The translations under genes were made by a program, and so were the position numbers. A stretch of DNA of 64,000 bases, taken from NCBI GenBank assembly GCA_947457885.1, contig CANGXU010000003.1, positions 6,147-70,146 on the forward strand. Reading direction: 5' to 3'. Shown here one piece after another: positions 36,401-53,158 of the stretch (position 1 is its first letter; each line of letters begins with the position of its first letter). The notes beneath the pieces are model-generated. The model was not told the DNA's origin. It saw only the letters and a list, made by a program, of their open reading frames with translations, and made no database searches. This DNA is from Betaproteobacteria bacterium. Lineage in GTDB: Bacteria; Pseudomonadota; Gammaproteobacteria; Burkholderiales; CAIKXV01.

Positions 36401-39400
36401 TCAGATCTGCGGCTCGGTGTACCAGTACACGCGCGTGGCGGCCCCCAGCGTCAACTGCTGCCGACTGAATAGTCTGGAGTCGGCCGCAGCCACGAAGAAC
36501 ACCCGGCGCGCCGCGGGGGTAGTGCCCGGCAGCACGATCAGCTGGCCGCTCGTACCATAACCTCGGTTGATGAAGTTCGAGTAGTACCGTGACATGCTGG
36601 TCGAGGTCACCGGGATCACGTAGGCCCCGAGCAGGTCCAGTTCGTTCAACCGGCTCAACCCGGGGGGCATGCAGGCGTTCACCTGCGCGATCGGCGTGTA
36701 GCTGCCGAAGCGGATTCTTCCGAAGAACACCGTCGGTTCACTGGTCACCTTCTCACCCGTATCGAGTACGCGATACCACCCCTTCGCGGTGGGGGTGGTG
36801 ATCAGTGCGGTCTCGGTAGCACCCGCTTCGGTCGAACCCAGGTTGATGAGGTCGCCTGCCAGAAGCGAAACGACCGAGGTGGAGGTCGCGTACAGACCGT
36901 AATCCGGGTCCTTGATCATCGCGATCACGTCGGTGGATGTGGCCTTCAGCGGGTTCTCGCGATTGCCGGTGCCGACGATCACCGCGTCGTAACGCACGCC
37001 GAGCCGCAGTTGCTTGACCGCCGCCGGCGGGAAGAAGATACGCCGGTCAGTGGGCGTGGTGGTCGCGAGCGTGGCCAGCAGCCTGCCGCTCCAGAGGCTC
37101 TTGTCCGCATTGCCGATGTCGAACCGCCAGACCTGGCCACCCATGTCTCCGACGTAGATCCGGTCGAGAAAACTGTTTCCGTCCAGGTCGGTGTCTAGCG
37201 CGGCAAGGTCGGAAGGGATGCTGAAGGACATGGATCCGCCGGTCACCAGCGGGTTCGAGTTGCTGAACGACGCCTCCAGACTGCCCGTGCGGGCGTTCAC
37301 CACGAACACGGCACGCCCCATCGTGTCGGCAGCCGTCGTCGGCCGGTTGTCCTGGTTCGGATCGTAGCCGCCGCCGAACAGAAGCACCGGGTCGGAGACC
37401 GCGCGTACCCGGCCGACGGTCGGGGTCGACCAGCTCTGGCCGAGTTGCGCGTAGGCGGTCGACGCGCTGCAGCTGCCCGCTCCGCAGATCTGCGTCGGCG
37501 TGATCTTCCACATGAAGCGGGGCGCGTTGACGTCGGTGATGTCCAGCGCGTAGTACGCGCGTCCGCCGCGCCGCAATCCGAAGAAGAGCCAGACCGAATC
37601 GGTACCGTCGACCACTCCGTTCCGGTTCGCGTCGTTGATCCGCACGACCGGCGAGCCGTCGGCAACGTAGATCTGTTCGCCGGTGGCGTTGGCCATCAGC
37701 GCCGCGAGCTGCGGCAGCGCCTCCTCGACGAGGAAGGTCCACTTTTCGGCCCCGGTGTTGGCGTCCACCGCATGGATGTAGCCCGCGCTCGACGCGTAGT
37801 AGAGATACTGCGCCGGCGGCGACGCGCCCGGGTTGTAGGTAACCAGCGCCGGGCGAGAATGCTGGACATCGCCGTGCGCCCACGACCGCCATGCGGTGCA
37901 GGCCGTCGCGGCGTTCGCGTCCGCACACGCCGCGTCTCCCGTGTTGCCGCCACGTGTCCAGTTCAGGATCGTGGAGCGCTGGGCATCGCTCATCGATGCA
38001 TTGCCGAGCAGTGTCTTGGTCAGATCGGCATTGTCTTCGGAGACAGCATTGCTCGAATGGGTTAGGTCTGCGTTGGTAGCGGTCGACAGGCGCGTGTAGA
38101 CCTTGCGCGTCGACGGGTTGTAGCCGGTGGTGTTGAGCAGCTGGTAACCGGTACCGCCGCTGTCCGGCTTGCCGGCATCGCGCAAGGTCGACGGTCCCCA
38201 GAAGCTGGAGGCATTCGGGTCCACCGTGGCGCTCTCGAGTCCGGTGATCGGATCCGTCTCGATCTTCTCGATATTCTTCGTGTTCGTACCGGACAGCACG
38301 GTCTGGCCGATCAGGCACAGGTCGGTGATGCCCGGCCCGCAAACGCCGGGTTCCGCGAGCGGATCCCCGAGCATGAATTTCTTGACCGTGCCGGTCCACG
38401 TCTGGGTGACCGAAGCCCTGAAGAACGACAGGTAAACGTCGGTCGAGTTGGTGGTGCGGTTGAGCGCCGAGATCGGCACCGTCGGCGAGGATACCGTCGG
38501 GTTCCAGTCGCGGATGGATACCAGTGCGTTGAGCAGCGCCGTCTTCAACTGGGCGCTGTCCTCGGCCACGTAGTACTGTCCGCCGGACTTCTGTGCCGCG
38601 TTCTGGAGAACCGGCGAACTCGCGCCGGCGAAGCCGATCGTGTAGGTGACCGCCGACTGCCTGCCCAGGATCCGGTCGGTGGTCGTCTCGCCAGCGAAAT
38701 TGATTGCGCCGGGACTGATGTCCGCGCGCGACATGAAGTAGGTAAGCTCGTCCAGCCAGACGTAGCCCCCGTCGGCCGAGGTGCCGGCCAGGTCGGTCGG
38801 TCCGAACGGCGTACCCGGGCTGACTTCGAATTGTTCCGAGGTGGTGTCCGCGTTGGTCTCGTCGGGAACGGTTCGCGGAGAGACGACGCCACCAGGTGTG
38901 CCGGTCCAGGTCATGTTCTTCACGCCGCGGCTCGGCGAGCCCGGCAGCGTGTTCGCCGCCGAGTCATCCTCGGGACCGCCGTCGGTGAGCAGAATGATGT
39001 AGTTCTTCTGGCAGCCTGCCGGCGCGGTGGTGGTGGGATTGTTCAGCATCGGCGATCGATAGACGCCGATCGACGGACAATCAGCCGAGATCGCCGTGCA
39101 TACGGCGGTCGTGTCGCGCCCCTGTGTGACTGTGCCGCCGGCCAGCGCGGTGGCCGTACTGGTACCCCATTGCGGGGTGCGCCCGGCGTAGTAGAGGTAG
39201 GCCTCGTACAAAGCTTCGGTCATGGGCGTACGCGCCGAGGCGGTGGTGCCCAGAATCGCGTTGACCAGTGCACTCCGGTTCGCGAAGTCGGCATCGGACG
39301 AGTTGGAGCCCATCCGGCGCATCGCAAACGCGACGTTCGCACCATCGCTGGCCAGCGTGCTGCTGGTACGGTTGAACACCATCAGCCCGAGGCGCATGCC

Positions 39401-52627: not shown

Positions 52628-53158
52628 TCACCACGGCAGGTCCGTGCCGGCCTCGAAGGTGCCGTTGGTGTTGATGTCTCGCCAGCGCTGGCCGGTCGCG
52701 TCGATGCACAGCCCGCCGTCGGAGGCGCTGGCGATCGGACCACCGGCGCGCGGCTGCAGGCAGGCAATGTAACCGACGGGCGGCCCGACGACGGCAGTGA
52801 TGGTGGGTTGGTTATAGCGCAGGTCGGTCGCGGTACCTGGCTCCGGGAAGGCCATCGGCAACTGGTTGGCGCCGGTTCCGAGTCCAGTGGCATAGGCGCC
52901 GCGCCGGTCGTTGAAGAACTGTTCCTGGCGCTGCGCGAAATCCTGCAGCCACTGCTGACCTTCGGAGCGGAAGCCGCGTACGACATAGTTGACATACGAA
53001 GGGTAGGCGAACGCGGCGAGGATGCCGATGATGGCCACCGCGATCATCAGTTCGACGAGCGTGAATCCGCGAGCACCGAGGGACGCTCGCGATCGGCTCC
53101 GTGGGCCTGCGCCCGTGCCGGGCACGCCGCGGGCGATGGAAAAGGTCTGTCGGTTCAT
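52628..53158 (-). CDS. pilE: type IVa pilin-like protein (PilE-like)
   Basis: ATG at 53158 follows [33 protein letters not shown], with Glu5 after the cleavage site. Length 176 aa. Confidence 0.8.

Follow-up and report, generated by a model that had tools for sequence, protein, structure and literature searches.

A 64-kb stretch of DNA (64,000 nucleotides of contig CANGXU010000003.1, hereafter the window) from a betaproteobacterium was found to carry ten consecutive minus-strand genes at positions 36401–53158. Together they form a type IVa pilus operon for minor pilins and PilY1, arranged next to ispH as is usual in Rhodocyclaceae-like betaproteobacteria. A pilE-like gene and a fimT/GspH-like gene are followed by two complete pilV-pilW-pilX-pilY1 sets, module B and, after a gap of 117 nt, module A (Table 1). 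In our judgement it is fairly probable that an old tandem duplication has left two functional tip complexes for one pilus, with FimT and PilE shared between them and module A under a regulated promoter of its own. The pilV-pilW-pilX-pilY1 segment would have been duplicated in tandem long ago in this lineage, and each copy most likely provides a separate tip and priming sub-complex made of PilV, PilW, PilX and PilY1. Both sub-complexes would be linked to the same pilus fibre through the single GspH-like FimT and PilE, resulting in pili with either of two tips. The tips would differ in the N-terminal half of PilY1, which is expected to lie at the outer end of the pilus: A would keep a metal-dependent MIDAS (metal ion-dependent adhesion site) in its von Willebrand factor A (vWA) domain, while the B protein would present a replaced site and an inserted domain of another kind. 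Module B probably shares a transcript with pilE and fimT, and module A is probably transcribed from the 117-nt gap, where an AlgR/LytTR-type response regulator would control its promoter and so make the ratio of the two tips adjustable.

The gene order and coordinates given in a first-pass annotation of the window (module B at 51988–44260, 117 nt, module A at 44142–36401) were borne out by the open reading frames (ORFs). All of the PilV, PilW, PilX_N, PilY1 propeller, GspH and N_methyl assignments scored above the curated Pfam/NCBIfam cut-offs. The prepilin cleavage/methylation motif (PF07963 or TIGR02532) was detected in both PilV proteins, both PilW proteins, FimT and PilE, with GFTLIE or GLSLVE visible. 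The ATG start of the pilE-like gene is preceded by a GGGGGAAG Shine-Dalgarno sequence. In pilY1 of module B, the ATG that yields the 1,763-aa product precedes a signal peptide; an alternative GTG at 49752 would extend the protein to 1,830 aa. An ORF at 52546–51982 in a mechanical list was rejected for being Arg-rich and in the wrong frame, the real frame of the fimT-like gene being 52611–51982. The spacing of genes within each module, which had been described as overlaps or gaps of 1–41 nt, was measured as ranging from a 10-nt overlap to a 41-nt gap and suggests translational coupling inside each module.

Table 1. Window coordinates of the genes and candidate regulatory regions of the pilus locus and of its ispH border.
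Feature	Position	Strand	Product	Observations
pilE upstream region	53159–53300	−		Half-site CCGCTCGTC (53227–53219); −10-like TAACAT; presumed promoter of pilE-fimT-module B
pilE-like type IV pilin	52628–53158	−	176 aa	First in locus; single copy; N_methyl and ComP_DUS-type pilin fold matches
fimT/fimU-like (GspH family) minor pilin	51982–52611	−		Single copy; ATG at 52611; PF12019 GspH 4.6e-13, N_methyl
pilV, module B	51356–51988	−	210 aa	TIGR02523 57.5 bits (cut-off 52.2); PF22150
pilW, module B	50145–51365	−	406 aa	From GTG; mature N-terminus at GLSLVELLVG; PF16074 4.5e-17, N_methyl
pilX, module B	49593–50138	−	181 aa	GspK/PilK-like, no Glu5; PF14341 PilX_N 8.2e-6, a marginal pass (26.1 bits, cut-off 25.5)
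pilY1, module B	44260–49551	−	1,763 aa	Signal peptide; PF05567 38.7 bits (cut-off 28.1)
Inter-module gap	44143–44259	−		117 nt; direct repeat; candidate AlgR/LytTR-type activator site and candidate module A promoter
pilV, module A	43504–44142	−	212 aa	TIGR02523 67.8 bits (cut-off 52.2)
pilW, module A	42422–43501	−	359 aa	PF16074 2.8e-18, N_methyl
pilX, module A	41947–42420	−	157 aa	PF14341 2.4e-8
pilY1, module A	36401–41914	−	1,837 aa	Signal peptide; PF05567 47.7 bits (cut-off 28.1)
ispH (lytB)	35348–36307	+		PF02401 8e-100; convergent with pilY1 of module A; right-hand border of the locus, ileS-lspA-ispH

Cognate proteins of the two modules had been called collinear and clearly diverged, and pairwise alignment agreed with this: the protein identities between A and B were 51% for PilV, 49% for PilW and 38% for PilX, and in PilY1 the C-terminal 1,300 aa were 43% identical and the N-terminal part 33%. 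The estimate that the conserved pilY1 DNA blocks are about three-quarters identical was slightly high, as long blocks showed 64–70% identity and values of 75–87% were reached in short blocks only. The source is a metagenome-assembled contig. As to whether the apparent duplication was produced during assembly, nothing was found in support of such an artefact and its probability is negligible. Copies that are 64–70% identical in DNA are far below the level that would confuse an assembler, and the same layout recurred in at least six assemblies made independently from different samples, with B followed by A in six independent metagenome loci (L002, L004, L005, L006, L007 and L065). In addition, PilY1_B was met in near-identical form at least 16 times on the contigs of many metagenome-assembled genomes (MAGs). 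Both PilY1_A and PilY1_B of the window were met in several independent assemblies, the closest named relatives being Rhodocyclaceae MAGs. The divergence of the copies, the shared architecture and the recurrence of PilY1_B together exclude an assembly artefact.

A PilY1 profile scan of 185,579 species genomes returned 61 loci, onto which the ten window proteins were mapped. All 61 belonged to Rhodocyclaceae/Burkholderiales-type betaproteobacteria, e.g., Accumulibacter, Dechloromonas, Sterolibacterium and Ca. Desulfobacillus. A single module in the order pilE-fimT-pilV-pilW-pilX-pilY1, with one pilE and one fimT and usually beside ispH, was present in 35 loci, and the pilE-like gene stands at the head of the locus in these relatives as it does in the window. 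Two-module loci were confined, among those surveyed, to the window's own clade: L002/L003, L004, L005, L006 and L007 are 60–83% identical to the window, and the more distant L065 is 48% identical in B and 51% in A. In the two-module loci B is always upstream and A is always beside ispH.

The same survey uncovered natural variants in which one module is incomplete or missing. Junction alignments showed that four close relatives (L001, L008, L010 and L012) have the order pilE-fimT-pilV_B-pilV_A-pilW_A-pilX_A-pilY1_A, the segment pilW_B-pilX_B-pilY1_B having been deleted. A 60-nt remnant that is 80–85% identical to window positions 44385–44326, inside the 3′ end of pilY1_B, was left in L001 and L008; L012 runs from 39 nt into pilW_B directly to 25 nt past the pilY1_B stop. 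Since the end points differ between lineages, the segment was lost at least three separate times. The pilV_B gene was kept in each partial-loss relative, under purifying selection, and these genomes have two pilV genes, separated in L001 by the gap at L001:7594–7796, for one pilW-pilX-pilY1 set. In L031 a B-type pilY1 lies directly beside ispH, and in L060 fimT is followed directly by an A-type module. Given these natural variants, either module alone appears to be viable, as experiments have shown for cluster_1 or cluster_3 of Myxococcus xanthus (PMC7541494).

The lengths of the two PilY1 proteins were as first reported. Their size, noted there as well above that of the characterised Pseudomonas PilY1 and Neisseria PilC proteins (about 1,000–1,200 aa), proved not to be special, as PilY1 was 1,700–2,400 aa long in every single-module relative (35/35). 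More than 120 PilY1 homologues measured 1,750–2,390 aa, and a large PilY1 is the norm for the Rhodocyclaceae/Burkholderiales group and no peculiarity of the window locus. Relative to PilY1 of Pseudomonas aeruginosa, the extra length is located in the N-terminal roughly 1,100 aa, where a vWA domain carries large insertions. A direct sequence search of both proteins against the PDB gave no hits, and it was the PilY1 family profile, not single sequences, that reached P. aeruginosa PilY1 (3HX6, E 5.9e-15). Structure prediction with AlphaFold2 (AF2) yielded models of the two N-terminal halves at moderate confidence, with predicted local distance difference test (pLDDT) values of 68 and 67. Foldseek matched these halves to vWA proteins, including BatB (3ibs) and TFIIH p44, and to the pilus-tip vWA proteins PitA (7w6b), Mfa5 (6tnj) and Streptococcus sanguinis PilB (7ba2); the E-values were weak (1e-3 to 1e-2) because the vWA domain is interrupted by large inserts.

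Both proteins end in a C-terminal beta-propeller. That of PilY1_B contains a putative Ca loop, DTNGDGLID, which is an exact nine-residue match to the EF-hand-like pattern Dx[DN]xDGxxD; that of PilY1_A has a longer putative Ca-type loop, DTDLDGNSFLD, the length of which varies among A orthologues. The N-terminal inserts of the two proteins are different. A Cys-rich insert of ~300 aa brings PilY1_A to 32 Cys. The PilY1_B of the window has 16 Cys, having undergone an in-frame deletion of ~140 aa in the Cys-rich subdomain relative to other B orthologues (~1,900 aa, 26 Cys), and this shorter form recurs in at least 16 sequences. A beta domain of ~80 aa (IATGSITAGTAQLTISRNN...ITVNLRV) was specific to PilY1_B (about aa 505–585, within window 46500–47900); its weak Foldseek matches (E about 1e-2, 15–24% identity) were to the N-terminal domains of phage endosialidase and tailspike proteins and to tail-tip domains of phage lambda. 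A separate observation concerns the A-type pilY1 of the two-module relative L004 (L004:16942–22329), which is a mosaic gene: the C-terminal 1,100 aa of its product are 80–84% identical to other A orthologues, and for the N-terminal 600 aa no sequence in the set exceeded 46% identity. This pattern suggests recombinational replacement of the exposed N-terminal part.

The clearest difference between the two proteins lies in the metal site of the vWA domain. PilY1_A possesses a complete MIDAS signature, VLDTSDSMN ... TPMTE ... LLTDGG. PilY1_B has the vWA fold and lacks the MIDAS signature, reading VLGTDDRMN ... MIANG (GTDDR...ANG). All A-type proteins keep DTSDS...D, and all B-type proteins carry GT[N/D]DR...N. 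Across ~140 large homologues the two states covaried perfectly, DTSDS being paired with D, and GT[N/D]DR with N, about 900 residues away; the full classes can be written DTSDS...(T/S)DG for the intact site and GT[N/D]DR...(T/S/A)NG for the rewritten one (proteins P0024–P0069 being among those so classed). The same rewrite was observed in a separate single-module clade comprising L019, L025, L050, L054, L063 and their relatives.

The B-type signature and its counterpart in this single-module clade raise the alternative that module B was acquired by horizontal transfer, as a pilV-W-X-Y1 cassette from another, already MIDAS-less betaproteobacterium that became inserted between fimT and the resident module. 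The GTNDR...N residues are the same in both groups, and the distances between A and B are about as large as those between A and the outgroup. In neighbour-joining trees of the smaller locus set, clades A and B each had a bootstrap value of 100, and their sister relationship gained weak support from PilV (14) and PilX (24) and moderate support from PilY1 (66) and PilW (74). The picture was different in a wider tree of 110 large PilY1 proteins, built from 1,520 well-occupied columns after removal of the MIDAS columns: A (100), B including P0092 and P0097 (100) and A+B (100) were all recovered, the other MIDAS-less clade was separately monophyletic (100), and a grouping of B with that clade received 0. 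The derived residues common to B and the MIDAS-less clade were essentially confined to the MIDAS positions. Moreover, a simple tandem duplication would be expected to yield the order B then A with one pilE-fimT pair for both. Acquisition of module B by transfer is hence unlikely. The broader idea that B-type PilY1 shares its ancestry with the other MIDAS-less clade, through ancient paralogy or horizontal transfer, was also rejected: region-wise trees and shared-residue counts lent it no support, and the wider tree contradicted it. On these data A and B are sister clades, most simply explained by a single tandem duplication in the clade's ancestor.

Within the limits of distance trees, the MIDAS rewrite looks convergent. 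A four-residue rewrite (DxSxS...D to GxNxR...N) with at least two independent origins would point to a defined alternative state of the vWA domain and not to simple loss; perhaps the Arg side chain stands in for the metal at the rewritten site. The MIDAS-less upstream and MIDAS-intact downstream proteins, each with a PilV-W-X set beside it, could represent a real division of labour, for example between a metal-independent and a metal-dependent adhesive or mechanosensing tip, the balance of which would be set by an AlgR-type regulator acting on the internal promoter. We put this forward tentatively, as a rather speculative extension. The on/off pairing of MIDAS and its apparent convergence are the most original leads of the analysis.

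Ratios of nonsynonymous to synonymous substitution rates (dN/dS; Nei-Gojobori) were calculated against orthologues. Values of 0.17–0.5 were obtained for all ten genes at a dS of 0.2–1.0; the few higher values came from comparisons in which an ORF had been extended beyond its true start. Judged from these ratios, purifying selection maintains both modules. Together with the existence of two-module loci down to ~50% protein identity, this indicates that both sets are old and have been retained intact. The proposal of the first-pass annotation that the locus is an old duplication kept as two full sets, and no artefact, hence stood, with the sister-clade trees (100), the loci at ~50% identity, the dN/dS values and the independent assemblies all in agreement.

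A competing view is that one module, most likely B, is a decaying redundant copy and that the locus is effectively single-module. The independent deletions of pilW_B-pilX_B-pilY1_B in at least three related lineages, the ~140 aa missing from the Cys-rich subdomain of the window's PilY1_B but present in other B orthologues, and the loss of the MIDAS motif from B would all be expected under decay. Nonetheless, all B genes are intact, with dN/dS of 0.17–0.43, and the pair B/A persists down to about 50% identity. In all B orthologues the MIDAS replacement is strictly conserved, and it goes together with the exchange of D for N 900 aa away, which argues for selection and not decay. The short form of PilY1_B is a recurrent one, and L031 keeps a B-type pilY1 beside ispH. 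We regard decay as quite unlikely and favour the interpretation that both modules are functional.

The 117-nt gap was inspected for signals that could give module A a promoter of its own. On the coding strand it holds a direct repeat, CCGCCCGTC-N12-CCGTTCGTC (44226–44197; 9-N12-9), with the traits of an AlgR/LytTR site, namely 9-bp direct repeats, a spacer of 12–13 bp and a match to the core. Its second 9-mer, CCGTTCGTC, is the exact AlgR binding-site core of P. aeruginosa, in which AlgR directly activates fimU-pilVWXY1Y2E (PMC4064291). The 9-N12-9 repeat was present at the same position upstream of pilV_A in L001, L005, L006, L007, L008 and L065 (with four mismatches in L065). The conserved blocks after the repeat end in a TAAC/TAAG −10-like element, which in the window is TAAGCT just before the ATG of pilV_A. 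In 11 of 39 outgroup loci a matching repeat (at most four mismatches; consensus CCGTTCGTT-N12-CCGCTYATC) precedes pilE at a constant distance, whereas only 1.3% of random 300-nt windows from these loci gave an equally good match. The pilE upstream region of the window aligns to this AlgR-like box of the outgroup, its first repeat being degenerate. Between the pilY1_B stop and the box, strong GC hairpins with U-rich tails (z −3.7 to −4.3) were observed in L005, L006, L007 and, less clearly, L002. On account of the position and conservation of the repeat, the pilE repeats of the outgroup and the hairpins that follow pilY1_B in L005–L007, module A is likely served from the gap by a separate promoter under LytTR/AlgR-type activation. 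A consensus scan of the 117 nt found no Sigma-70 promoter. A candidate Sigma-54 promoter, seen by eye as a GG-N10-GC-like string, was dropped as its −12 element is not conserved in L001. The window's gap contains no intrinsic terminator, its RNA fold being no better than those of shuffled sequences (z = −0.1), and the hairpin is also missing in L004; read-through from module B may add to module A transcription in these two loci.

We infer from the presence of one fimT-like and one pilE-like gene that both modules share FimT and PilE. The first-pass annotation had placed such partners beside module B only, and each is indeed a single copy at the locus. It could be argued instead that the modules serve two different type IV filaments, e.g., one a pilus for motility and the other a pseudopilus for secretion or DNA uptake. 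In cyanobacteria, distinct filaments are reported to be primed by specialised sets of minor pilins (bioRxiv 10.64898/2026.02.12.705559), and the number of pilus machines in the genome is not visible from the window. None of the window's genes encodes a component of the machine, and the flanks consist of housekeeping and metabolic genes. On the other hand, a lone pilE-like and a lone GspH-like gene are available to both modules, and no second major pilin or machine gene lies nearby. Both PilY1 proteins have the same C-terminal anchoring peptide, and in single-module relatives this locus houses the only set. Two separate filaments are consequently improbable, and one fibre for both modules remains the interpretation that we prefer. 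The peptide in question, R-V-Y-W-Y-x-E/D-P, is present in PilY1_A, PilY1_B and all relatives. The last ~10 residues of PilC/PilY1 proteins are known to add a beta-strand to the minor pilin PilX/PilK (PMC13533445), and the conserved RVYWY end of both window proteins fits this published mode of attachment.

With MIDAS loss in B, the different inserts and the natural single-module variants taken together, two alternative tips with different specificities on one machine are plausible. Several observations weigh against this interpretation. The RVYWY peptide is identical in A and B, and the pairing of PilY1 with PilX may hence not be specific to the module. The AF2 models are of moderate quality and the Foldseek E-values weak, as given above, and the trees were constructed by neighbour-joining on simple distances, not by maximum likelihood. 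Repeated loss of module B together with the 140-aa deletion in PilY1_B could mean that B is only conditionally useful. With regard to the promoter, CCGTTCGTC occurs once in the 64-kb window, where ~1.2 occurrences are expected by chance, and its weight comes only from position and conservation. The gap of the window has no terminator-like hairpin, so that modules B and A may be co-transcribed, and genes for AlgR/FimS-type (LytTR) regulators were looked for in the 64 kb and none was there.

The closest parallel to this locus is found in Myxococcus xanthus, which has three minor-pilin/PilY1 clusters for one machine; cluster_1 or cluster_3 alone suffices, and tips with different properties have been proposed (PMC7541494). 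These clusters have been described by Treuner-Lange et al., 2020 (PMC7541494), Herfurth et al., 2022 (PMC8833165) and Mahanta et al., 2026 (PMC13190605). The last of these, a survey, counted an average of two PilY1 proteins per myxobacterial genome and reported long Cys-rich vWFA variants, MIDAS and Ca motifs, and complementation of a beta-strand between PilX and PilY1 (PMC13190605). The window resembles M. xanthus in having several PilV-PilW-PilX-PilY1 sets (there for one major pilin and one machine), in a conserved C-terminal propeller and variable N-terminal part of PilY1, and in long, Cys-rich, vWFA-containing PilY1 variants. It differs in that the M. xanthus clusters are dispersed and each has its own FimU, whereas the sets of the window are adjacent and have one GspH-like FimT and one PilE, and in that the window pair is consistently MIDAS-minus upstream and MIDAS-plus downstream. 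The locus may therefore work like the M. xanthus clusters but, as its two sets do not each have a FimU of their own, it is not organised like them. The interpretation of two tips was largely anticipated by published work, being the model proposed for M. xanthus (PMC7541494) and by now the standard one.

The fimT and fimU-pilVWXY1Y2E locus of P. aeruginosa comprises the same gene families, with a PilY1 that has a MIDAS-containing vWA domain (in the window A only) and a Ca-binding propeller, and its operon is under direct control of AlgR through FimS(AlgZ)-AlgR, the AlgR core being the one found in the window's gap (PMC4064291). The AlgR sites at P. aeruginosa fimU are degenerate (CCGTTTGGC and CCCTCGGGC), while the core in the gap is exact. 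Unlike the window, P. aeruginosa encodes one module only, its PilY1 measures about 1,160 aa, and its pilE closes the operon. Genomes with two or more PilC/PilY1 tip adhesins are common, examples being Neisseria (PilC1/PilC2) and Xylella fastidiosa (PilY1 paralogues; PMC13190605), but in these organisms the adhesin only, and not the PilV-W-X set, is duplicated. Against the Neisseria PilC equivalog NF040838 the window proteins scored 43.7 and 32 bits, far from the cut-off of 350, and are distant relatives only. A literature search of incomplete coverage for tandem pilVWXY1 duplications yielded no specific description. The differences from known systems are modest: the sets are in tandem at the ancestral locus, only PilV-W-X-Y1 is duplicated, a MIDAS-less protein is paired with a MIDAS-intact one, an internal AlgR-type promoter is likely, and natural deletion variants exist.

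The locus does not overturn current models; it is an example of a strategy already described in other bacteria, and it would add an uncultured freshwater betaproteobacterial lineage to the bacteria with interchangeable tip complexes on one type IV pilus. Its relatives offer a natural experiment, with both modules, with module A and an orphan pilV_B, or with a B-type pilY1 beside ispH, and a clear feature open to testing separates the two PilY1 proteins: MIDAS is present in one and rewritten in the other. Should the two-tip model and the AlgR-type internal promoter be true, this would be a compact system in which to relate the chemistry of the PilY1 vWA domain to surface or ligand specificity and to study the choice of tip.

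The ispH border was found in nearly all of the related loci. The operon fimU-pilVWXY1Y2E of P. aeruginosa PAO1 also adjoins ispH(lytB)-lspA-ileS. The other flank of the window locus is formed by amiC, tsaE and a tRNA-Thr gene (CGT; 53507–53582, +), which lies between amiC and the pilE promoter region on the strand opposite to the pilus genes and was the sole match in an Rfam scan of the window. The overall GC content of the window is about 67%. It falls to 0.59, as against about 0.67, at positions 13000–15900, where the ORFs 13238–14863 (+), 14868–15395 (−) and 15434–15943 (−) had no Pfam match and lacked the high GC3 of their neighbours; this patch may be foreign or non-coding DNA. Amid the metabolic genes there are four genes for TctC-family (Bug-type) periplasmic solute-binding proteins (856–2028, 2054–3178, 7040–8089 and 17226–18506), which are typical of Burkholderiales-like betaproteobacteria and agree with the taxonomic placement.

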